Assembly (NCBI GenBank): GCA_000004985.1
Contig: GG738851.1
Strand: one strand, 5' to 3'
DNA length: 64,000 nucleotides
DNA from: Naegleria gruberi
Taxonomy: Eukaryota
Made by a program: the position numbers and the translations under genes. The first letter of the stretch is position 1. Each line of letters begins with the position of its first letter. Below, one piece after another: positions 3,619 to 63,946 of the stretch. The notes below the pieces were generated by a model. The model worked only from the letters and a program-made list of their open reading frames with translations, searched no databases and had not been told where the DNA came from.

Positions 3619-5360
3619 NNNNNNNNNNNNNNNNNNNNNNNNNNNNNNNNNNNNNNNNNNNNNNNNNNNNNNNNNNNNNNNNNNNNNNNNNNNNNNNNNN
3701 NNNNNNNNNNNNNNNNNNNNNNNNNNNNNNNNNNNNNNNNNNNNNNNNNNNNNNNNNNNNNNNNNNNNNNNNNNNNNNNNNNNNNNNNNNNNNNNNNNNN
3801 NNNNNNNNNNNNNNNNNNNNNNNNNNNNNNNNNNNNNNNNNNNNNNNNNNNNNNNNNNNNNNNNNNNNNNNNNNNNNNNNNNNNNNNNNNNNNNNNNNNN
3901 NNNNNNNNNNNNNNNNNNNNNNNNNNNNNNNNNNNNNNNNNNNNNNNNNNNNNNNNNNNNNNNNNNNNNNNNNNNNNNNNNNNNNNNNNNNNNNNNNNNN
4001 NNNNNNNNNNNNNNNNNNNNNNNNNNNNNNNNNNNNNNNNNNNNNNNNNNNNNNNNNNNNNNNNNNNNNNNNNNNNNNNNNNNNNNNNNNNNNNNNNNNN
4101 NNNNNNNNNNNNNNNNNNNNNNNNNNNNNNNNNNNNNNNNNNNNNNNNNNNNNNNNNNNNNNNNNNNNNNNNNNNNNNNNNNNNNNNNNNNNNNNNNNNN
4201 NNNNNNNNNNNNNNNNNNNNNNNNNNNNNNNNNNNNNNNNNNNNNNNNNNNNNNNNNNNNNNNNNNNNNNNNNNNNNNNNNNNNNNNNNNNNNNNNNNNN
4301 NNNNNNNNNNNNNNNNNNNNNNNNNNNNNNNNNNNNNNNNNNNNNNNNNNNNNNNNNNNNNNNNNNNNNNNNNNNNNNNNNNNNNNNNNNNNNNNNNNNN
4401 NNNNNNNNNNNNNNNNNNNNNNNNNNNNNNNNNNNNNNNNNNNNNNNNNNNNNNNNNNNNNNNNNNNNNNNNNNNNNNNNNNNNNNNNNNNNNNNNNNNN
4501 NNNNNNNNNNNNNNNNNNNNNNNNNNNNNNNNNNNNNNNNNNNNNNNNNNNNNNNNNNNNNNNNNNNNNNNNNNNNNNNNNNNNNNNNNNNNNNNNNNNN
4601 NNNNNNNNNNNNNNNNNNNNNNNNNNNNNNNNNNNNNNNNNNNNNNNNNNNNNNNNNNNNNNNNNNNNNNNNNNNNNNNNNNNNNNNNNNNNNNNNNNNN
4701 NNNNNNNNNNNNNNNNNNNNNNNNNNNNNNNNNNNNNNNNNNNNNNNNNNNNNNNNNNNNNNNNNNNNNNNNNNNNNNNNNNNNNNNNNNNNNNNNNNNN
4801 NNNNNNNNNNNNNNNNNNNNNNNNNNNNNNNNNNNNNNNNNNNNNNNNNNNNNNNNNNNNNNNNNNNNNNNNNNNNNNNNNNNNNNNNNNNNNNNNNNNN
4901 NNNNNNNNNNNNNNNNNNNNNNNNNNNNNNNNNNNNNNNNNNNNNNNNNNNNNNNNNNNNNNNNNNNNNNNNNNNNNNNNNNNNNNNNNNNNNNNNNNNN
5001 NNNNNNNNNNNNNNNNNNNNNNNNNNNNNNNNNNNNNNNNNNNNNNNNNNNNNNNNNNNNNNNNNNNNNNNNNNNNNNNNNNNNNNNNNNNNNNNNNNNN
5101 NNNNNNNNNNNNNNNNNNNNNNNNNNNNNNNNNNNNNNNNNNNNNNNNNNNNNNNNNNNNNNNNNNNNNNNNNNNNNNNNNNNNNNNNNNNNNNNNNNNN
5201 NNNNNNNNNNNNNNNNNNNNNNNNNNNNNNNNNNNNNNNNNNNNNNNNNNNNNNNNNNNNNNNNNNNNNNNNNNNNNNNNNNNNNNNNNNNNNNNNNNNN
5301 NNNNNNNNNNNNNNNNNNNNNNNNNNNNNNNNNNNNNNNNNNNNNNNNNNNNNNNNNNNN
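3619..5360. other. Assembly gap (1742 N). True size and content are unknown.
   Basis: A run of n characters. The same repeat family is seen on both sides of the gap, so it probably holds more repeat copies. Confidence 0.95.
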
Positions 5361-42509: not shown

Positions 42510-44219
42510 ATGTTTGACAAGCCAAGTAATCTCTGCTCTCAGTCTTTTGATATTGAAAAACAAGTTTGCTTTTCCAACTCCTCTGATACTGATGTGGTCG
42601 ATTTGTTTTGGATTGATTATTCGGGTGCTGAGGTTTTTATTAGTACCATTGCTCCAAAGCAACAAGTTGGACAGAAAACCTTTGCTACTCATCCCTTCCT
42701 GATGAGAAGTTTATTGAGCAGAAAGATTGTGGGCTTGTTTGTGATTGATGAGCAATTGCCCGATCGATCAACATTGAAATATGGTGAAAATAATTATAAT
42801 ACAAGTGGCAACAGTAAAAGTAGTGGTGGAATGATTCCTACACCTGGTGATGCTCCACCTCGTTTGTTTGAAAAGATTACTTATAGAAATAGTATTGTAG
42901 GAAGTCAAGATCAATATTATGGTTTGAAATCAGCAACTGGAACTTGGCCTGCAGAGCTACATGTAAAGAATAGAACTGGACATAATTTGGAGTCTTATTG
43001 GATTGATTTTGAAGGTAATTTGAGAAGTTATGGAATTTTGGATTCTGGAAAGAATTTTGATAGTATGAGTGGACATGGTCATATCTTTCTTTTCAAAACT
43101 CCTGATGGTTCCTATCAGAAGATAATTACTGCCTCATCTGAAAAACCTTCTCAATTCCTCGATCCTGATGAAATTGAAATTACTGCCTCAGTGATAGATT
43201 CACCTTCAGAAACTAGTTGTCACTCTATTCTTGAGAAGCATATTCAAGGAAGGTGTGGACGTGCACTCAAGTTTTTCACTGAACCTCACATTGATCGGAT
43301 CATTTCAGAAATTGAAACCAAACTCAAACAAGAAGGAAAACGATTCATTGATGAAGACTTTTTCCCAGGAGATAATTGGAAGAGAGCTAGTGATTATTTC
43401 AAAAATCAAGCCAGTATTTTCAAAGGTGATATTTCTCCAAAAGCACCAATACAAGGAGGAGCAGGTGATTGTTGGTTAATCCAATCAATGAGTGGAGCAG
43501 CCACCTTACCAGACAAGATTAAGGAAGTATTTTGCAAGTGTGAACATATTGATCCATCATTGGGATTGTTTGTCTTGTCTTTCCATTCAACAGATGGTTC
43601 AAAAATATTCATTCTCTTGGATGATTACTTTCAATTTACATCAACCAATTTTAAATGTTCAAGGAGTAGTACAGTTGGAGAATTGTGGGTTCCGTTAATT
43701 GAGAAGGCATTTGCAAAACTGTGTGGAAGCTTTGAATCCCTTCATCCAGTTGTTGGAAATCATGGTATTAATCCTGCTGAAGTGTTGTTGTACTTATTAA
43801 GCGGCAAAAATGGTAAAAACATTCAATGGTACTCTGCTGAGGGGAAAACTATAATCTCTCAGGGAAAATTCTATCCACTCGTGGAGAGTTTATTGGACAG
43901 TAAAAAGAGCGTACCAGTCTGTACCAGTAATGCTAATACCAAGGAGGGCTATGTTGATGAGTATGGAATTGTTCACTATCATGGATATTCCATGTTGGGT
44001 TATAGAAAATATCCTCAACACGGCATCAATCTTCTCCACATAAGAAATACATGGTCCAAACAGGAATGGAATGGTTTGTGGTCTGATAATTGTGTACAAT
44101 GGGCCAAATATCCTGATATTGCCAGTGAACTGAGAAGTGTTTCAGAAGATGGATGCTTTTGGATATCATATGATGATTTTGTAAATCACTTTTGTGTACT
44201 TTGGTGGAATGAATTTTAA
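42510..44219 (+). CDS. Calpain-type cysteine protease (catalytic core only, no penta-EF-hand), 569 aa
   Basis: The catalytic Cys motif is QGGAGDCWLIQSMSGAA. The His region is VHYHGYSMLGY. The Asn/Trp region is IRNTWSKQEWNGLWSD. Confidence 0.7.
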   Translation: MFDKPSNLCSQSFDIEKQVCFSNSSDTDVVDLFWIDYSGAEVFISTIAPKQQVGQKTFATHPFLMRSLLSRKIVGLFVIDEQLPDRSTLKYGENNYNTSGNSKSSGGMIPTPGDAPPRLFEKITYRNSIVGSQDQYYGLKSATGTWPAELHVKNRTGHNLESYWIDFEGNLRSYGILDSGKNFDSMSGHGHIFLFKTPDGSYQKIITASSEKPSQFLDPDEIEITASVIDSPSETSCHSILEKHIQGRCGRALKFFTEPHIDRIISEIETKLKQEGKRFIDEDFFPGDNWKRASDYFKNQASIFKGDISPKAPIQGGAGDCWLIQSMSGAATLPDKIKEVFCKCEHIDPSLGLFVLSFHSTDGSKIFILLDDYFQFTSTNFKCSRSSTVGELWVPLIEKAFAKLCGSFESLHPVVGNHGINPAEVLLYLLSGKNGKNIQWYSAEGKTIISQGKFYPLVESLLDSKKSVPVCTSNANTKEGYVDEYGIVHYHGYSMLGYRKYPQHGINLLHIRNTWSKQEWNGLWSDNCVQWAKYPDIASELRSVSEDGCFWISYDDFVNHFCVLWWNEF

Positions 44220-49049: not shown

Positions 49050-49514
49050 ATGCCACCATCATCAAAACAATCATCATCATCGCCATCAGTAGGAAAGAAA
49101 ATCAAGTATTTTCCTCGTGTTGAAAAGGCAGAGCAATTAATCACCAAAGGACATATGGCCCAATTCGGTGCCCTCGTTGGAATGAAAATGAGAGAAGAAT
49201 TAAGAGAACAAATCCGTGAGTACGAATTCGATGTAATTCGAAGACTAATGAAAAAGTCCATTTTGCTGGTAGCCGTAGATGAGGTTGGAAAATCAACAAC
49301 TTCTAATGGCATTTGGAACGTCGATGGCAATACTATGAGAATGTCATTTAGATCAGAATTGTCATACAAGTTGATGGGTGTGTCAAGTAATGACCAAGAG
49401 GATGAAGATTATCACGATGAAGAGGAAGAAGAATCTGAAGTAATAATAGTGAGTGATGATGAAGATTTTGAAAATTATGTTGATGAAGAAGAAATTGAAG
49501 AGGAGGATGAATAA
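49050..49514 (+). CDS. Small acidic protein (154 aa) with a poly-Glu/Asp C-terminus
   Basis: An ORF with an ATG start. Confidence 0.4.
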   Translation: MPPSSKQSSSSPSVGKKIKYFPRVEKAEQLITKGHMAQFGALVGMKMREELREQIREYEFDVIRRLMKKSILLVAVDEVGKSTTSNGIWNVDGNTMRMSFRSELSYKLMGVSSNDQEDEDYHDEEEEESEVIIVSDDEDFENYVDEEEIEEEDE

Positions 49515-49862: not shown

Positions 49863-50323
49863 ATGAGATCTGCCGGAGTTGTATGTACTGTTTAATTAGT
49901 TGTAATTCCGTTATTAATTATCATCATCCTTAATATTTTCATCATTGTGGTCATGATACAATTATACAATGAATTTTATCATAAAAAAACCATATCAACA
50001 ACCAATAGGCCTATCTTTTATGGTTATTATGCTGTGTTGGCTTTTGTGGTATTCATAGATTTTATCTGGATTCACTCATTCTCGGAATTGTTAGTTTCTT
50101 AACGTGTGGTATCTTTGGTATTTTGCAGCTAATTGATTTGATTTTGATTCCTGGCATGGTTGATGTATGCAATGCCAAATTTATGCAAAAGACAACAACT
50201 GTTGTTGTTCAACCAGTGCAAACACAAGCAGGTGTAGTTGTTGTACAAAATGCTCAACAACAACAATTCCATTCATCTACTCAACAAGTTGTTACAACAA
50301 CCACAACCACTACCACCAACTAA
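49863..50323 (+). CDS. TM2-domain membrane protein. It has two exons, 49863..49880 and 50009..50323, separated by a 128-bp GTATGT..TAG intron. It is not in the ORF track because exon 1 is only 6 codons.
   Basis: The spliced product is MRSAGV|AYLLWLLCCVGFCGIHRFYLDSLILGIVSFLTCGIFGILQLIDLILIPGMVD..., matching the TM2 consensus (fLG.hRFYLG....G...l.T.GG.giw.liD.i). The C-terminus is T/Q/V-rich. Confidence 0.55.
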
Positions 50324-50560
50324 TTTTTGTACAAATCAAGATTCCAATCCAAAATAAAAAAGAATTATTTCAGAAATTGGACATTTTAGATTTCCCATTA
50401 AAGAGATTCTACATTTTAAGGATTTGAGTCAGACCAATTTAAACGAATCAAAGTGAAACTATACCGAATCAAAAACAATCAAAAACAAATTGATATCATT
50501 CAATCAGCTACCTTTCCAATCAAACTAACCAACTAACTGTCAAATAACCTGTTCGAAACC

Positions 50561-50911
50561 ATGAAAAAGATACTCTTCATTGTTCTGGTTTGCATTCTGG
50601 CTGCCCTATTCTTCAATGCTGATAAAGCTGATGGACAATTAGTGTACAGCTACCGTTATGCATATAGTTACCCTTACTCCTATGGTTACTCGTATCCATA
50701 CTCATATGGCTATTCCTACCCATATAGTTACGGATACTCATATCCATACAGCTATGGTTACTCATATCCATATAGCTATGCTTATTCCTATAGTTATCCT
50801 TACTCATACGGTGGTTATGGTTATCCTTACTCATATGGTGGTTATGGCTACCCTTACTCCTATGGTTACAGTTATCCTTATTCTTATGCTTATTCATACC
50901 GTTATTGGTAA
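50561..50911 (+). CDS. Secreted tyrosine-rich tandem-repeat protein: a signal peptide followed by about 11 repeats of (G/A)YSYPYSY
   Basis: The translation is MKKILFIVLVCILAALFFNADKADG + YSYRYAYSYPYSYGYSYPYSYGYSYPYSYG.... The underlying 24-nt DNA repeats differ at synonymous positions. Confidence 0.7.
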   Translation: MKKILFIVLVCILAALFFNADKADGQLVYSYRYAYSYPYSYGYSYPYSYGYSYPYSYGYSYPYSYGYSYPYSYAYSYSYPYSYGGYGYPYSYGGYGYPYSYGYSYPYSYAYSYRYW

Positions 50912-51540
50912 AGAAACCAATCAATGTAATTTTTTCGAAACTCTTAGTGAGACCTTGTGAGACCATCATATACCAATAAAAAAAATTAATTTGTGTGAAA
51001 CAACAATCGCTTCATTTTCAATTATTGGACTAAACATGGACCGTCCAATATGAAGTCGACATTCTGTCAAAATTATGCAAAGATAAAAGTGGACCAAATT
51101 GTGATATCAAGGCATTTTCCATATATCAATCGAAACCGATCATTTTCTATTCTGTTACGTTGTGATTACAGTAAAATGCAAAGCTCTATTTTAGATAGGA
51201 TAAACCTTTCAAATTTCCTATGGTGGTCTTGTCTTTCTTGTGAATGGAACAACAAAATTCATCGTTGCATTCAGGGGTTTATTCACAACAACGTTGAACA
51301 CTAGTTTTGGCAAAATGAAAATTTGTGGATTAGGAAGGAAATATTTCCAACTTTTGAATTGGAAAAGATAACCAACTAGATTGAGAATTTTGTAAAGATA
51401 ACACTTCCAATTCAATAACTCCCTTCATGGAAAATGAATTCAATAATTCAATTCCCCAACCTGATCATTTTCCATTTTTAGAAAATATTCAAATAGATTT
51501 TTCCAAAAACGAAACTTAACATTATTCGAAAAAAAATCAA

Positions 51541-52692
51541 ATGAAACAAAAACTACCTTCCAACATTAAAGTACTCATACTTTCTCTCCTTCTGGTCCTA
51601 CTACTCTACTGTAATCTTTCACATTCGGCCAGTTTACGTGGAGAATCTAGTACGAATCCAACCGATTCAAATCCGAAATCACCATTAGCTCCAGTTCAAG
51701 GTGGCGCCTACATTATCAGTAGCCAACAACCATCCACAGCCACACAGCAACAACCTACTCAAGGATCTGTCACTCAACAAACTCAAATCGATCCAAATTC
51801 TCAAAACCAAGTCGTGTCCACAACCTCGTATCCAGCATCTGCAAATCCAACTTCGATTACGGTTATTTATCCGAGTGGAGCTACTCCTAGTAGTCAAAAT
51901 CCAGTAATTCCTAGTCAACCTACTCAGACACAACCTACACAACCTACTCAGACGCAACCAACACAACCAAGTCAACCATTGCCACAGCCACAGCCACAAC
52001 CAATTCCAAATCAAAATCAACAACAATCATATCCACAATATTCACAACAAAGTACCTATAGTCAATATACAACTGGTCAACCACAACAACAGCAACAACA
52101 ACCTTATTATGGAAATAATCAACAACAACAACCTGTCTATTCACAACAACCAGTTTATAGTCAACCACAACAACAACAACAACCTTATTATGGAAATACT
52201 CAATATGCTCCACAACAATCTTATCCTCAAAATCAATATGTCCAACAGCAACCAGTGTATAGCCAACCAGTCCAACAACAACAACAACCTTATTATACTT
52301 CATCACCTCAATATGCTCCTGTCCAGAGTGGTCAACCAGCTTATTATCCACAAACACAACAGCCATACTATGGAAACACTCAATATGTCCAACAACAGCC
52401 TCAATATGTTCCACAAACTCAATATGTCCAACAACCTTACAATGGTGGTGCTCAATATTATTATCCACAACAATCTTATCCTCAAACTCAATATGTCCAA
52501 CAACCATACTATGGAACAACTGGTTATGCTGCACAACCATATGTATCGGGTGGATATCCTGCAACCACAGCTGTTGCGCCTGGCTATGGCTATGCTGCTC
52601 CTGCTGCAACTGCTGGATATGGTTATGCAGCTCCTGCAGTTGCCTATCAACCACAAGCTGTTTATTCTTCCTATCCTGCTTATTACTATTAG
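51541..52692 (+). CDS. Secreted Gln/Pro/Thr/Tyr-rich low-complexity protein (383 aa) with QQPYYGNTQYVQQQP-type repeats and a C-terminal GYGYAAPA repeat
   Basis: The signal peptide is MKQKLPSNIKVLILSLLLVLLLYCNLSHSA. The repeats are PTQ(T/P)QPTQPTQ, Q-rich and Y-rich. Overlapping ORFs on both strands are repeat artefacts. Confidence 0.65.
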   Translation: MKQKLPSNIKVLILSLLLVLLLYCNLSHSASLRGESSTNPTDSNPKSPLAPVQGGAYIISSQQPSTATQQQPTQGSVTQQTQIDPNSQNQVVSTTSYPASANPTSITVIYPSGATPSSQNPVIPSQPTQTQPTQPTQTQPTQPSQPLPQPQPQPIPNQNQQQSYPQYSQQSTYSQYTTGQPQQQQQQPYYGNNQQQQPVYSQQPVYSQPQQQQQPYYGNTQYAPQQSYPQNQYVQQQPVYSQPVQQQQQPYYTSSPQYAPVQSGQPAYYPQTQQPYYGNTQYVQQQPQYVPQTQYVQQPYNGGAQYYYPQQSYPQTQYVQQPYYGTTGYAAQPYVSGGYPATTAVAPGYGYAAPAATAGYGYAAPAVAYQPQAVYSSYPAYYY

Positions 52693-52795
52693 ACAATGAT
52701 TTGAAAAAATGTAAATTAGATTTGAAATTGTAAAATTGTACAGAGAGAAGTGAAATTCAATGGATTTTGTGTGAGAAATAAAAAGAGTTTGTTTT

Positions 52796-54712
52796 TTATT
52801 CCTTCAATTCAATTTCATTCCTATGTTCCTCTTCAAGGATTGGTGTTTCATTGTGATGAATGGTTGTTGGTTCGGCTGCTGCATCAAAGTGAAGTTCATG
52901 AGCTGGTTCAATTTGATCATGAATTGGAACTGGTTGACCATTTCCTGTATCCTGAGCACGAGACAATCTAACACAGAAAATCATGAATGAAGATAGTACT
53001 TGGAGTGATGCACCAAGAGCGTACAATAACAGGTAGCCCATTCCAACAACATCTGGTGCAATAGCATCACCAATTAAAATGATCAATCCTCCCAAAGGTA
53101 CACCCAATAATTCAGGAACTGTACCAGAAATATTCCACAAGGCCAAATCCTTTCCAGAATCATCTTTGGTAATCAGAACTGAATTTACAAGTGACAAGTC
53201 CACACTAATAAATGATCCAATACCCAAACCATAGAGAATGGAGCAACACAGAATCATTACACTGTAAGATCTGAAAATGATTAAAATAATACTGGCAATA
53301 CCACAGCCCAAGGCACCAGCACTGTACACATATCTTCTTCCAATAAGCCCGGCTATTTTTTGTGCAAATAATGCACTAACAAATGTAAAAGCGAAAACAA
53401 TTCCAAGGAATAAACTCAAAGCTTCCTCATTATTGGTTGGGAATTTGTTGGTCAAGATGAAATTATATGGAGTCAAAACTTCTTGAATAAAATAGAAAAA
53501 GTAATTTCTGGCAGCAGCATTTGTCAATTGAATAGTGAAACGAGTAATAAAAACCCAAGTAAAATTCCTATTCTTGAATGGAACCAAAAATGCAAGAGCA
53601 TAATTGAGGGCTCTCTTGTAGAATCGTGGTTTTGGTGCTTCTTGTGCAGGTTCTGTAGTGAGTGGAACGTCTTCAAATTCTCCTGGTTTCTTGGCAGCTT
53701 CCTTTTCAATTTGTTTGACCTTTGTCTTTCTAAGCTCTCTATGGAAGAGCATGAGAGGTACACAAACAATTGAACACAGAGCTGCATATCCCAAACATAC
53801 CCAAATCAAATCAACATGACCAATTATCACACCTCCCAAAACAACTCCCAACATGACTCCAATCAAAGTAAAAACACCAACAAGTGCTGAAACCAAATTG
53901 ATTTGTTCTTGTGGGAACAAATCTGTTACCATTGCAGTCACAATAGCTTGTGAAGTGACATATCCACATTTTCCGATACACAGCACAGCTCCATACATGA
54001 CAAATATGAAAACATAATACTGTGGAAACTGTGTATGCATCATTGAACAAATAGATTGCAGAATAATCATCAATGCCCACACCAGAGTAGTAACCACAAC
54101 AATTGGAATACGTGATTTCCTACCAATCCTATCAGAAATATTACCAACTATGGGACTAACAATCACTCCGATAACTGTTGCAATAGAAACAACAATACTC
54201 AAGTAGAGTTCCTTATTTTCTGATCCCAACATTTGAACGACAAGTTTTGGCAATAACAATCCAAGTACAAACGAACTTGTTGAACCACTTCCTATATAAT
54301 ATATAGAATATCCAATTGTTTTGTAGAGTGGTTGTCTTTGTAATCCATCATGATGAAGATTTTGTGGAACTTTCTCATGATGTTGACTATCAATTGTGTT
54401 GTTATCATCATTGTGAGGAGTTGATGGTGTATCTAATCTTGCCAATTCCTCTCCCATTACATCTAACATGGGTTTTGCAATGGTTCTCTCTGGATGTTTA
54501 ATGTCTATTGGTTCCAAGTGAAACGAGGAGGTCATTGGATTGTATTCGGTCAGAATGCCAATGCCTTCATTAGAATGATGGCTATGAGAAGAAACGTGGG
54601 AGGAGAAGGAAGCAGTATGGGCTGATGTAGGTGTTTTCTGTTGTTGTTGTTGTTGTATTGGATGAGAGGCGATATCTTCATTGTGAGGATTCCCTGATGA
54701 TGATAGATTCAT
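52796..54712 (-). CDS. Major facilitator superfamily transporter with a ~170-aa disordered His/Gln/Ser-rich N-terminal extension
   Basis: There are 12 predicted TM helices. The MFS loop 2-3 signature is GNISDRIGRKSRIPIVVVT. A large central loop is present. Confidence 0.7.
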   Translation of the reverse strand: MNLSSSGNPHNEDIASHPIQQQQQQKTPTSAHTASFSSHVSSHSHHSNEGIGILTEYNPMTSSFHLEPIDIKHPERTIAKPMLDVMGEELARLDTPSTPHNDDNNTIDSQHHEKVPQNLHHDGLQRQPLYKTIGYSIYYIGSGSTSSFVLGLLLPKLVVQMLGSENKELYLSIVVSIATVIGVIVSPIVGNISDRIGRKSRIPIVVVTTLVWALMIILQSICSMMHTQFPQYYVFIFVMYGAVLCIGKCGYVTSQAIVTAMVTDLFPQEQINLVSALVGVFTLIGVMLGVVLGGVIIGHVDLIWVCLGYAALCSIVCVPLMLFHRELRKTKVKQIEKEAAKKPGEFEDVPLTTEPAQEAPKPRFYKRALNYALAFLVPFKNRNFTWVFITRFTIQLTNAAARNYFFYFIQEVLTPYNFILTNKFPTNNEEALSLFLGIVFAFTFVSALFAQKIAGLIGRRYVYSAGALGCGIASIILIIFRSYSVMILCCSILYGLGIGSFISVDLSLVNSVLITKDDSGKDLALWNISGTVPELLGVPLGGLIILIGDAIAPDVVGMGYLLLYALGASLQVLSSFMIFCVRLSRAQDTGNGQPVPIHDQIEPAHELHFDAAAEPTTIHHNETPILEEEHRNEIELKE

Positions 54713-60788: not shown

Positions 60789-63700
60789 ATGACCACCAAG
60801 GTACAATTAGTAAGGGATGCTTCTCTGGCTTTTCAACAAAAAAAGTACGATGAATGTTTGAAAATAATTTCGCACGATGAACATCATGAATCATCATTGC
60901 CTTGCTCGGAAGAGTTGGGGATGGACATCAAGTTAGGAACCATTGTGGGAATGTGTCATTATAACAATGCTGTTATTCAAAAAGAAATGGCAAAGGAATT
61001 GTTTGATAAGGCTTTGATTCAATTTGATAAGGTCATTTCTCAATATAGGGAATATGAAAATACTGTACATCAAGATCAAGGAAATGTCAAATCAATTGTT
61101 GAAAATAACATTGGATTGGAGGTTTTTATATCTACAACAAAGGTTAATTATTTGGCAGGTCTTTGTCATTTATATAGTAACAGGTACAAGGATGCTATAC
61201 CTTATTTTAGTAGTGCTGCTCTTATGGCCTCAACCTTACAGAGTAATATTGGATATGTGGCCAATAAGGATCATGCCAAATCTTTCCTTAAAGAGTCACC
61301 AAAGTACTATTTAAATCGAGGAATCTGCTACAATGAGTGTAAAAATAATGAGTTGGCAGAGAGGGATCTTGTCAAATATGTGGCACTAATTGAAACATCT
61401 GATTTGAGTCCAGACACTCAAGCACCTCTCTTATTTGTTGCGTTTACTAGTTTAGCAAGCACAAAATTAAACAAGAATCAACAAGAGGATGCAATCAAGT
61501 ATTTCAATAAGGCCATCGATTCTTTCAACGTAATGGAACCGGATGCCCAACAGGTACATTTTGAAAACTGTGTTAAGGCTAAACTCAAAAGAGCCACAAC
61601 ACTTCAAAAGTATATTAGTTACCATGTGTATAACTGTAAGGAAGATGCAAACCTTATGAAAGTAATTGAAAGTTATAGAAAAATGGCCTCTGATGATTTG
61701 GAAACCGCAAGAAAATACAAGAGACTCGAGTTTTATTACTTGTACCAATATGTAAAAATGATAGTGATGTTCTGCAAACATGTGGAAGGACTCATTGAAA
61801 AAGATGAATTGGTACCTCTCTATCAAGATGCTGCAGACAAGTTGCAAGAATGCATTTCAATTCAACCAAAGAATGCAAAATTGTACGGGGACTTGGCATT
61901 GTGTAAGAGCAAGATTGGGAAAGAAAAATTGGAAGAAATTTTAGATTTGTACAATAAGAGTTTTGAATTAACCAATGGGGAACCTACGGATAAGGTATCT
62001 AAGCAAAAGTTGGCCAGGATTTATTTCGAAAGATCTGTCATTTATTTCAAATTATCCAATACTGATAAGGCCAAACAAGATTTGGATAGAGCTATTCGTT
62101 TGAATCCATACTTTTCAGATGCTTACTACAATAGAGGTTTTTTATTGAAGGATTCCGAAGATGATATTGAACAAACTTTGGACGATTTGGGAGCAACCTG
62201 TGAAATGAACCTTGAGGACACTGAGTGTGCATTTCTTACGTAAGTTGATTGGTATTGTTCAGTTTGATTGTAATTATATATAGTGCCATTATTTTAGCAA
62301 AACAAGAAAACAAGGAAGGTAGTCGTTCCATTGTCGAAGAATTCATCAAGTTTAACCCTAATGATTCCAATTTGAAAGATCTTTTATTAGCTCTTAATAA
62401 CGAGGGCAGTTTGGATGCATTTGAATCCTTACCTAAATTCAGAGAATCCCACAAGAAGAACAAACTCTGGACACCTAATAGAAAAACAAAACCAAGTCTA
62501 GACAGAGCATCAATTAGAAATAGAGTTACAAGTGCCAAACTCGACGAACAAGACACTGATGATGGCTATTATTGTGATCCAACCTTCCCAGCAGTGTCAA
62601 AATCAATCTACGGAACAGAGGATAGTGATTTACCATCTGAATTGACTTGGTACAGAACTTGGGACTTGTGTTTCCTCAGAGAAGAGTCCCAACTTTTTGT
62701 TGATGGTACAAGCAATACTGATATCATGCAAGGTGGTATAGGTGATTGTTGGTTACTTTCTGCATTTTCAATTGTTGCTGACTATCCAGATATCATGAGT
62801 AAGATTATATTGGAGTCAAAATCAGATCCAGATAACGGAAAGTATGTCTTTTCCATTTTCGGAAAAGAAGGCCCCACAGAAGTAGTTATTGACAATAGAT
62901 TGCCATGTTTTTCTGATTCGGGAAGTCTTGCATTCTCCAGGAGTGGAACCTCAAACGAAATGTGGATTTCCTTATTAGAGAAGGCATATGCTGCGTATTA
63001 TGGAAGCTACCAAGCACTTCAAAGTGGTTACATGAGGGATGCCCTTGTTAGTTTAACAGGTGGAGTTCCTTTCACTCTTGATATCAGTGTAGAAAACAAG
63101 GAGGAGGTATGGGAAATCTTAAAGACTATTAAAAAGAAGAGCACTGATCCCTCATCATACTGCTTAATGGGATGTAGATCTGACAAGGCACCAGCCAGAA
63201 CTGGTATTCAAACTCACCATGCCTATGCAATTCTGGATTGTTTCGACTGTCCTCTTGAAATGACCAATGGAAAGAGAACTCGTCTTGTCAAACTTAAGAA
63301 TCCATGGGGTTATGGTGGTGAATTAGAATCTGGAGATTACTCTGATGATAGTAAGTGGTGGACTAAGGAGCTCAGGAAATATGTTGGACATGAATCAAAA
63401 ATTGATGGCATTTTCTTCTTGACTTTGGGGGCACTTGTTAAATATTATACGCAAATTCAAGGAGTAAGGATTTTTGATGAGGAGCATTGGAGTATAGCAC
63501 GTTTTGTGGATGAATTCAAGCAAAAACCTGGACATGACTTGGATGACTGGGGCCTAGATATTTGTTCTTTCTCGTCTCATTATGTTATTCACAACACCCA
63601 CGAAGACAACAAGCTAGTAATTGAACTTTCTCAAAAAGACACCAGATTTACAAGAGATCAAAAAGAAGAGTTCAAATGTGTTGCCATTTATGTATTTAAA

Positions 63701-63946
63701 TATCCTGAAAGTCAATTCAATGGCGAAGAAAGCACCAGGTTAGCAACAATTGGTGAAGAGAATGAAACTGTCGTTCAGGGTATCTACGACGGTTGTTACA
63801 GTGAAACAAGCATTGAGACAACACTACCTGTTGGCCATTATGTTGCAATTCCAGCTGAGCTTTACTCTAAGACACCAACAGAGAAACTTTCACTCAAAAT
63901 TATTTCAAGAAAACCTGTCACTATTGTTAGATTGCCTGTTCAATAA
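60789..63946 (+). CDS. TPR-repeat / calpain-type cysteine protease fusion protein, ~1036 aa. Exon 1 (60789..62239) encodes the TPR region. A 44-bp GTAAGT..TAG intron at 62240..62283 removes the apparent TAA stop. Exon 2 (62284..63946) encodes the calpain core.
   Basis: TPR-like helices include ..YYNRGFLLKDSEDDIEQTLDDL.. and DLDRAIRLNPYFSDAYY. The splice AC|GTAAGT...ATATATAG|T is in phase and joins ..CAFLT to AIILAKQENKEG.. The calpain motifs are MQGGIGDCWLLSAFS (Cys), IQTHHAYAILD (His) and KLKNPWGYGGE (Asn/Trp). Confidence 0.65.

Follow-up and report, generated by a model that had tools for sequence, protein, structure and literature searches.

Our analysis suggests that a reading frame of 383 codons from Naegleria gruberi NEG-M, the source strain of the 64-kb window (the whole stretch of DNA analysed here), encodes a secreted protein rich in Gln, Pro and Tyr that may serve as building material outside the cell. 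Taken as a whole, this reading, a genuine unannotated secreted gene product that forms a building block of extracellular material, is the best explanation we can offer, with a probability of roughly 40%. The ORF lies at 51541..52692 on the + strand, as the sequence-only reading had described it, and runs from an ATG start to a TAG stop. Judged by codon usage and by its variation between two alleles, it is a genuine single-exon N. gruberi protein-coding gene.

The coding evidence is specific to this frame. Its codon log-odds amount to 0.297 bits per codon, compared with 0.21–0.34 for ten reference genes of the window, while the two remaining + strand frames score −0.30 and −0.44. Repeats are absent from the first ~125 codons, yet there too the coding score is confined to the chosen frame, with log-odds for codons 1–125 (signal peptide included) of +0.218 against −0.33, −0.52 and −0.50 in other frames. 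A second allele, L001, found on the ENA metagenome contig ERZ929261, is 98% identical to the ORF and stays open over 385 aa. All four indels that separate the two coding sequences are multiples of three (6, 6, 3 and 9 nt), whereas those in the flanking intergenic DNA measure 5, 3, 1 and 4 nt. In the mature region, eight synonymous and two non-synonymous differences were counted (pN/pS about 0.07; binomial P = 1.7e-4); by this measure the frame is under purifying selection between the two strains. Together, the codon log-odds, the open L001 allele and the substitution pattern identify the frame that had been proposed as the true one.

The sequence-only reading had also listed four spurious ORFs overlapping the gene. 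Their spurious status is borne out by the substitution pattern, but their number is not, as five ORFs of at least 60 aa overlap it. Those on the − strand are found at 51685-52026 (113 aa; 1/1 synonymous/non-synonymous substitutions relative to L001), 51944-52696 (250 aa; 0/8) and 52303-52656 (117 aa; 0/4), and those on the + strand at 51701-51907 (68 aa; zero substitutions) and 52109-52699 (196 aa; 1/5; codon log-odds −0.25). Because the L001 substitutions in these frames are almost all non-synonymous, against 8/2 in the mature part of the chosen frame, the five ORFs (span 51685..52699) are, on this comparison, by-products of the repeats and not genes. The codon log-odds of the 250-aa antisense ORF, +0.238, fall inside the range of genes.

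The gene appears to have escaped annotation. In the protein collection, the MFS neighbour is an exact match to XP_002681162.1 (N. gruberi NEG-M), and exact N. gruberi entries exist for five of the eight further neighbouring ORFs tested. The exact Q/P/Y-rich protein is absent from this same collection; the gene therefore seems unannotated and is apparently missing from the published N. gruberi gene set. No relatives emerged from the searches that we performed. With the full protein as query against 5.8 billion sequences, no match was found among the best 8000 candidates, which were dominated by Q-rich words, and the non-repetitive N-terminal 126 aa yielded 18 candidates and zero matches. Exhaustive phmmer against 1.84 billion representatives returned 0 matches at E ≤0.001, Pfam returned 0 families at E ≤1, a sequence search of the PDB gave a chance match only (E = 0.23), and metagenome scans with this protein and with the MFS neighbour detected no related loci. 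Within the window, uncorrected tblastn pointed to a microsatellite, (CAGACA)n/(CCAAAA)n, by an assembly gap at 2.4–3.0 kb, to weak composition-level matches at ~26.8–28.0 kb and 57.1–57.4 kb (E 7.5e-5 to 0.09) and to a neighbouring Tyr-repeat gene (30% identity); all were rejected as paralogues because every tblastn match disappears with composition correction. Since the protein collection also lacks the 385-aa product of L001, unannotated orthologues in other Naegleria genomes would be missed, and the orphan status suggested by these searches is provisional. No paper found in the literature search names PRJEB11402.

A signal peptide is predicted at residues 1–30 (51541..51630, + strand, start codon included; MKQKLPSNIKVLILSLLLVLLLYCNLSHSA). 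The N-terminus, MKQKLPSNIK-VLILSLLLVLLLYC-NLSHSA, combines a basic start (K2, K4 and K10), a 14-residue hydrophobic core (V11–C24) and a polar end that carries small residues at −3 and −1 (S-H-S or S-A-S at residues 27–31). We based the call on inspection, the hydropathy profile and an AF2 helix, and cleavage near residues 28–31 was judged by eye. Hydropathy reaches its maximum of 2.06 across residues 11–29, and the helix spans residues 7–29, in agreement with the signal peptide proposed earlier. All four amino-acid changes within it in L001 (Q3R, P6S, N8S and I13V) preserve its pattern of charge and hydrophobicity. After residue 30, mean hydropathy never exceeds 0.6 in any 19-residue window, giving no further transmembrane segment; the C-terminus (...SSYPAYYY) has neither a hydrophobic GPI-type end nor K/HDEL, and the mature protein contains neither a dibasic cluster nor an N-glycosylation sequon. 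By these features, the product looks like a soluble, secreted protein that enters the secretory pathway.

Overall, the protein consists of 23.8% Q, 14.4% P, 12.8% Y, 9.9% S and 8.4% T. Its mature part of ~353 residues is nearly uncharged (2 D, 1 E, 1 K and 1 R) and devoid of Cys, Phe, Trp, Met and His, the sole Cys (C24) lying inside the signal peptide. Q-rich tracts are frequent in the N. gruberi genome, with one in the MFS neighbour too, and composition alone is therefore weak evidence for function. Four regions, all on the + strand, follow one another in the mature protein. A non-repetitive Ser/Thr/Pro/Gln-rich N-terminal region (residues 31–122; 51631..51906; S 18%, Q 14%, T 13%, P 13%), which shows no difference from L001, leads into a linker of PTQ(T/P)Q and PQ repeats (residues 123–160; 51907..52020; IPSQPTQTQPTQPTQTQPTQPSQPLPQPQPQPIPNQNQ; Q 34%, P 32%, T 16%), inside which TRF detects a period-24 array at 51916-51968. 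Next comes a Gln/Tyr/Pro-rich region of degenerate repeats (residues 161–330; 52021..52530; Q 36%, Y 19%, P 14%), where Q, N, S, Y and G make up 71% of residues and poly-Q run lengths differ between the alleles by +6, +6 and +3 nt. The Ala/Tyr/Gly/Pro-rich tail (residues 331–383 and the TAG stop; 52531..52692; A 28%, Y 23%, P 13%, G 11%) carries the 9-nt change, an in-frame deletion in L001.

The repeat motifs named in the sequence-only reading could all be located: PTQ at residues 72, 127, 132, 135 and 140, together with the PQ repeats; QPYYGN at residues 187, 214 and 274; TQYVQQ at residues 280, 293 and 316; and the two C-terminal copies of GYGYAAPA at residues 348 and 359. PVYSQ is present three times as well. 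The Tyr-rich C-terminal half holds 45 Tyr in 220 residues, spaced 1–13 residues apart, with Y-x-Y at residues 306, 349, 360 and 381 and YY at ten positions, so that an extensin-type cross-link motif is present, which is not family-defining alone. A Pro occurs every 2–16 residues throughout the mature protein, whose Pro-free stretches reach 15 aa at most. AF2, run on the single sequence, gave pLDDT <50 nearly everywhere outside the N-terminal helix, and the mature protein is predicted to be disordered throughout. With two tryptic sites, it would release one usable tryptic peptide, GESSTNPTDSNPK, followed by a 337-residue fragment.

Upstream on the same strand lies the Tyr-repeat gene (50561..50911, +), which encodes 116 aa with a signal peptide and YSYPYSYG repeats and is a possible functional partner. 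The intergenic distance, previously put at 630 bp, is 629 nt (50912-51540). At 37%, the Tyr content of its product is the highest of the 95 ORFs in the window, and, whether ranked by Tyr content or by the hydrophobicity of the N-terminus, the two ORFs take the top two places among these 95. The exact Tyr-repeat protein is not in the protein collection, its sole matches being weak, compositional ones to small secreted Tyr-repeat metagenome proteins, and exact look-ups for contigs encoding either product found none. An 84-aa ORF between the two genes (51050-51304) was rejected as a gene, since indels break its frame in L001. The 266 nt directly upstream of the Q/P/Y-rich gene (51275..51540, +), a likely promoter and 5′ UTR, are 99.6% (265/266) identical to L001, compared with 81% identity and many indels over the ~125 bp upstream of 51275, and we infer a regulatory role for them. 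Two copies of TTCCAATTCAA fall within them, one at 51405 and one, in reverse complement, at 51354. All four matches of the pattern TTCCAATYMAA in the window lie upstream of the Tyr-repeat and Q/P/Y-rich genes; as the pattern was derived from these same copies, and the window contains 50 occurrences of its core, TTCCAAT, we keep it as a weak lead to a promoter motif common to both genes. Adjacency, the ranks for Tyr and hydrophobicity and this weak, post-hoc motif make a functional pairing of the two ORFs possible, and the co-regulation suggested by the sequence-only reading would be a further possibility. The other neighbours in the window encode Eaf7, TM2, MFS, calpains, a kinase-WD40 protein, PARG, and KH and TPR proteins, and no oxidase, peroxidase or polysaccharide synthase was found within its 64 kb.

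Based on its sequence, the protein would most plausibly be material of the cyst wall or pore plug, otherwise of a surface or adhesive coat. In such a material, the Ser/Thr/Pro/Gln-rich N-terminal half could act as an extended spacer, possibly O-glycosylated, and the Gln/Tyr/Pro-rich C-terminal half with its 45 Tyr could hold the material together by stacking and hydrogen bonding of its Tyr and Gln. A peroxidase, laccase or tyrosinase whose gene lies elsewhere may also act on the C-terminal half and cross-link it oxidatively, through Tyr-Tyr or quinone links, and the adjacent secreted Tyr-repeat protein is a possible co-substrate. No Naegleria cyst-wall protein is described in the literature that we searched. 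The most specific version of this proposal, that the two adjacent, unannotated orphan genes encode a protein matrix, cross-linked by oxidation, for the cyst wall or pore plugs of Naegleria and that this wall chemistry arose independently of the coccidian dityrosine wall, is in our estimate rather unlikely.

Several of the same features could also belong to a non-covalent, mucin-like glycoprotein at the cell surface, used for attachment to substrate or prey or for lubrication, with neither enzymatic cross-linking nor a link to encystment. A signal peptide followed by a 130-residue stretch rich in Ser, Thr, Pro and Gln and a PTQ linker is typical of O-glycosylated stalks; predicted disorder fits such a protein, as does a window that encodes no cross-linking enzyme. 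It has, however, no membrane anchor or GPI-type C-terminus with which to attach to the cell, and 45 clustered Tyr next to a secreted protein of 37% Tyr exceed what a mucin needs; we consider this reading fairly unlikely. The sequence-only reading had pointed to a cross-linked or amyloid-like extracellular material, and a secreted functional amyloid or prion-like protein, whose Q/N/Y/S/G-rich C-terminal half assembles into extracellular cross-β fibrils, would accord with the 71% of these residues in the degenerate-repeat region, with only five charges in the mature protein and with repeats that recall PQGGYQQYN of yeast Sup35. Yet the dense spacing of Pro leaves no stretch longer than 15 aa without one, AF2 predicts no β structure (weak evidence, as a single sequence was used), and Pfam holds no matching amyloid family. 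The amyloid-like nature is thus unsupported, and we regard fibrils of this kind as improbable.

Similarly improbable is a young, lineage-restricted ORF that arose from CAA/CCA-rich repeats and has little or no specific function and weak or no expression. It would account for the failure to find a homologue in any search, for the absence from the annotation and for the low-complexity repeats that fill about two thirds of the ORF and open ORFs in other frames as well; but purifying selection with indels that are all in frame, native codon usage that extends to the 125 non-repetitive N-terminal codons, a well-formed signal peptide unlikely to arise by chance and a conserved proximal promoter region argue against it. 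Storage of nitrogen in the ER or in vesicles, mobilised at excystment as in a prolamin-like protein comparable to cereal glutenins, is suggested by the signal peptide, by 38% Q+P with hardly any charged residues and by the likeness of PYYTSSPQY to the GYYPTSPQQ repeat of HMW glutenin. We consider it quite improbable, since no glutenin, gliadin or prolamin family matches in Pfam at E ≤1, the mature protein has no Cys for disulphide polymers and an ER-retention signal is absent; we know of no amoeba precedent for such a storage protein. Finally, protists commonly have Q-rich activation domains and the signal peptide was called by eye alone, which would leave room for an intracellular Q-rich regulator or for a protein anchored in the membrane by an uncleaved N-terminal hydrophobic stretch. 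A core of ~14 hydrophobic residues falls short of the usual length of a membrane span, though, and the nuclear alternative, raised together with the original claim, is contradicted by the lack of any DNA-binding or other Pfam domain, of a basic cluster and of more than five charged residues in 353, so that the chance of either is very remote.

If the extracellular building material that we favour is indeed wall material, the gene pair would be a first molecular handle on the Naegleria cyst wall and would show Tyr-based hardening to have evolved convergently. In Naegleria, a genus that includes the pathogen N. fowleri, the cyst is the resistant stage and the one that disperses. The chemistry of the wall would then have escaped both annotation, through low complexity, and shotgun proteomics, through the scarcity of tryptic sites in the mature protein. 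It is more certain that the N. gruberi gene set can lack secreted genes of low complexity, whose products would be nearly invisible to trypsin-based proteomics. Orphan disordered proteins like this one are common in protist genomes, and in kind it is ordinary.

Among known systems, insect pro-resilin has a signal peptide, disorder and Pro-punctuated repeats with regular Tyr, which form di- and tri-tyrosine networks. The Q/P/Y-rich protein shares the signal peptide, the disorder and the Pro-punctuated, Tyr-bearing repeats; unlike resilin, however, with its Gly-rich, charged sequence and its R&R chitin-binding domain, our protein is Gln-rich and matches no such domain in Pfam. Wheat HMW glutenin subunits and other prolamins likewise combine a signal peptide, very high Gln+Pro, short Tyr repeats and few charges, all of which have counterparts here, including the PYYTSSPQY stretch. 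Prolamins serve for storage in plants rather than outside the cell, and polymerise via Cys in non-repetitive end domains, in contrast to a protein with no mature Cys and no glutenin or gliadin match. The N prion domain of yeast Sup35 resembles the protein in its Q/N/Y/G-rich composition and in its oligopeptide repeats with Pro and Tyr, but it resides in the cytosol, lacks a signal peptide and is joined to a folded, functional domain. The Ser-Pro(3-5) motifs of extensins are missing from the Q/P/Y-rich protein, which contains neither SPP nor PPP.

The sole amoeba cyst-wall proteome found, that of Acanthamoeba, is made up of folded lectins rather than proteins of low complexity, and the wall also contains abundant laccase, indicating oxidative chemistry in an amoeba wall (PMC6541295). 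The Acanthamoeba lectins Luke, Leo and Jonah are secreted cyst-wall proteins with Ser/Pro- or Thr/Lys/His-rich spacers that resemble the PTQ linker, but they have folded, Cys-rich carbohydrate-binding domains, whereas the Q/P/Y-rich protein has no recognisable domain, and Acanthamoeba (Amoebozoa) and Naegleria (Heterolobosea) are unrelated lineages. In coccidian oocyst and sporocyst walls, Tyr-rich secreted precursors are hardened via peroxidase-driven dityrosine cross-links (PMC2726925, PMC4776368). These precursors belong to Apicomplexa, in another supergroup than Heterolobosea, are not Gln-dominated, are proteolytically processed into small Tyr-rich peptides and have zero detectable sequence similarity to the Q/P/Y-rich protein in phmmer and word-index searches. 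Like it, however, Eimeria GAM56/GAM82 and EtSWP1 and Toxoplasma TrOWP are secreted, low-complexity and Tyr-rich, and by this analogy we propose the Tyr-rich coccidian resting-stage wall as a working model for the Naegleria protein.

The ORF at 51541-52692(+) begins with an ATG and encodes a 383-aa, Gln/Pro/Tyr-rich product (QPY), as the sequence-only reading had described it, and it lies on the same strand as an upstream Tyr-repeat ORF (50561-50911(+), 116 aa, signal peptide followed by YSYPYSYG repeats) at a spacing of 629 nt. ORFs in other frames do overlap it, although the original count of four needs correcting, as we found five of at least 60 aa. With codon preferences tabulated from ten long ORFs of the window as the reference, the QPY ORF reached 0.297 bits per codon, compared with 0.21-0.34 for the ten reference genes and with -0.30 and -0.44 for its other two sense frames. 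The first 125 codons, which are non-repetitive, scored +0.218 (alternative frames -0.33, -0.52 and -0.50). The sole overlapping ORF comparable to the QPY frame, a 250-aa antisense ORF (0.238), scores high because CAA reads on the opposite strand as TTG, a common Leu codon.

A second allele of the locus is carried by an ENA metagenome contig (L001; ERZ929261, 3751 bp), which contains the same neighbouring MFS transporter gene and a 385-aa version of the QPY ORF with 98% DNA identity. All four indels within the coding sequence are multiples of three (6, 6, 3 and 9 nt), whereas those in the flanking intergenic DNA measure 5, 3, 1 and 4 nt. Substitutions in the mature region comprise eight synonymous and two non-synonymous changes (pN/pS 0.07; binomial P = 1.7e-4 against neutrality), while the same substitutions read in the overlapping ORFs give synonymous/non-synonymous counts of 0/8, 1/5 and 0/4. 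The signal segment differs by four amino-acid changes (Q3R, P6S, N8S, I13V) that retain charge and hydrophobicity. The coding frame is thus conserved and under selection, and the possibility that one of the overlapping frames is the true ORF is contradicted by both codon usage and allele differences. Three independent lines agree that the QPY ORF is a gene in this frame.

Residues 1-30 of the product (MKQKLPSNIK-VLILSLLLVLLLYC-NLSHSA) have the three-part layout of a cleavable signal peptide, and a sequence scan after residue 30 detected no hydrophobic segment, GPI-like tail, K/HDEL, dibasic cluster or N-glycosylation sequon. The protein is rich in Q (23.8%), P (14.4%), Y (12.8%), S (9.9%) and T (8.4%), has no Phe or Trp, and contains Met only as the initiator; its mature part (5 of 353 residues charged) also lacks Cys and His. 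By composition, a non-repetitive S/T/P/Q-rich region (residues 31-122) is followed by a PTQ/PQ linker (123-160), degenerate repeats with 36% Q, 19% Y and 14% P (161-330) and an A/Y/G/P tail (331-383). The motifs listed previously are all present, namely PTQ(T/P)Q repeats at residues 127-143, three copies each of QPYYGN and TQYVQQ and two of GYGYAAPA, along with three of PVYSQ. Tyrosines are concentrated in residues 164-383 (45 of 49), 1-13 residues apart. An AF2 model contains a single helix (residues 7-29) with pLDDT <50 for 328 of 383 residues, weak evidence of disorder since it was built from a single sequence. QPY combines secretory features with a disordered, low-charge composition. The mature protein (51631-52689) has tryptic sites at R33 and K46 only; digestion would give GESSTNPTDSNPK as the single usable peptide, together with a fragment of 337 residues, so routine shotgun proteomics with trypsin is almost certain to overlook it.

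The MFS gene, convergent with QPY (638 aa, 52796-54712(-)), is identical to XP_002681162.1, identifying the source as Naegleria gruberi NEG-M, and five more ORFs neighbouring the locus have exact N. gruberi entries. The QPY and Tyr-repeat products have no exact entry in the same 15-billion-sequence collection, and the first 126 residues of QPY, which are free of repeats, likewise matched nothing when used as a query, implying that no annotated model exists in this frame. UniProt accessions follow map order from D2V3U6 (49050-49511) to D2V3U8 (the MFS gene), and therefore leave space for one annotated gene where we recognise three. That one, D2V3U7, is probably the TM2-domain gene at about 49863-50325(+) (Pfam PF05154, E = 2.9e-11 on 50009-50320), with an apparent 6-codon first exon (ATG 49863) and a GTATGT...TAG intron to 50008. 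QPY is a real gene, apparently missing from the annotation. The stop codons of QPY and the MFS gene are only 103 bp apart (52693-52795), which leaves room for no more than very short or overlapping 3' UTRs.

With a G+C content of about 30-38%, the window is rich in AT, and it is densely packed with genes. Assembly gaps in the form of N runs (2451-2500 and 3619-5360) and long (ACACAG)n-type and (CCAAAA)n-type microsatellites flanking the first (about 2500-2930) account for extreme composition values and spurious long ORFs there. Two calpain-family genes are present, at 62249-63946(+) and 42510-44219(+), the latter with an unusual pairing of an N-terminal VHL beta domain (E = 2.4e-9) and a calpain protease domain.

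Upstream of the QPY ATG, 266 bp are 99.6% identical between alleles, while identity drops to 81% in the preceding ~125 bp, where indels are numerous, an abrupt shift at about 51275 within 51150-51540. A conserved promoter of compact size would be consistent with this pattern; a haplotype breakpoint or contig-end artefact could also produce such a step. Given the divergence and indels of the upstream stretch, an 84-aa ORF at 51050-51304 can be discounted as a gene. The window has four matches to TTCCAATYMAA (50342, 50514, 51354(-) and 51405), each 5' of QPY or the Tyr-repeat gene, with the last two copies, separated by 40 nt, forming a perfect inverted repeat of 11 nt. Having been defined post hoc from these copies, with a common core (50 window matches), it is only a lead towards an element common to both upstream regions.

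Among 95 ATG-ORFs of at least 60 aa in the window, the Tyr-repeat and QPY ORFs rank first and second in Tyr content (37% and 12.8%) and take the top two ranks for N-terminal hydrophobic peak. Together with their adjacency and co-orientation, these rankings suggest that the two genes are linked in function or evolution; their sequences show no similarity beyond composition, and none of the other genes in the 64-kb window is wall-related. The Tyr-repeat protein has only weak database matches, none better than E = 2e-7; these are numerous small, secreted metagenome proteins of 80-180 aa (including P0003-P0022) with YSYGY / YSYGYSYP-type repeats. Since their signal peptides look bacterial, we take the likeness as convergence, and small secreted Tyr-repeat proteins apparently form a recurrent convergent class.

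For QPY, searches found no Pfam family at E of 1 or better, no match among 5.8 billion proteins (word-indexed) or 1.84 billion representatives (exhaustive phmmer), no meaningful match in PDB sequences and none in JGI metagenome contigs; the protein collection lacks even the near-identical L001 allele, and orthologues left unannotated in other Naegleria genomes would likewise escape. We regard QPY as an ordinary lineage-restricted, low-complexity secreted protein, and put the probability that it is real and secreted at about 0.8. The proposed role in structural extracellular material is plausible: the exported protein would become part of such material, the N-terminal half serving as an extended, possibly O-glycosylated spacer and the Tyr/Gln-rich C-terminal half as a cohesive or cross-linkable part. 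We hold this structural role only tentatively, and consider a place in the cyst wall specifically to be unlikely.

A nuclear Q-rich regulator is very unlikely because QPY has no domain or basic cluster, yet a good signal peptide. Amyloid assembly, also raised by the sequence-only reading, is not favoured, given prolines at intervals of 2-16 residues and no Pro-free stretch longer than 15 aa. QPY does not qualify as a prolamin, extensin or resilin, with no Pfam match, no Cys in the mature part and no SPPP. With only one Lys in its mature chain, QPY is unlikely to be cross-linked internally by transglutaminase.

Among known systems, the Tyr-rich wall precursors of coccidians may be the best functional analogues of QPY, and resilin is also comparable. 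Coccidian oocyst and sporocyst walls are made from such precursors and hardened through dityrosine bonds (PMC2726925, PMC4776368). Oxidative enzymes are also found in an amoeba wall, with laccase abundant in the cyst walls of Acanthamoeba (PMC6541295).
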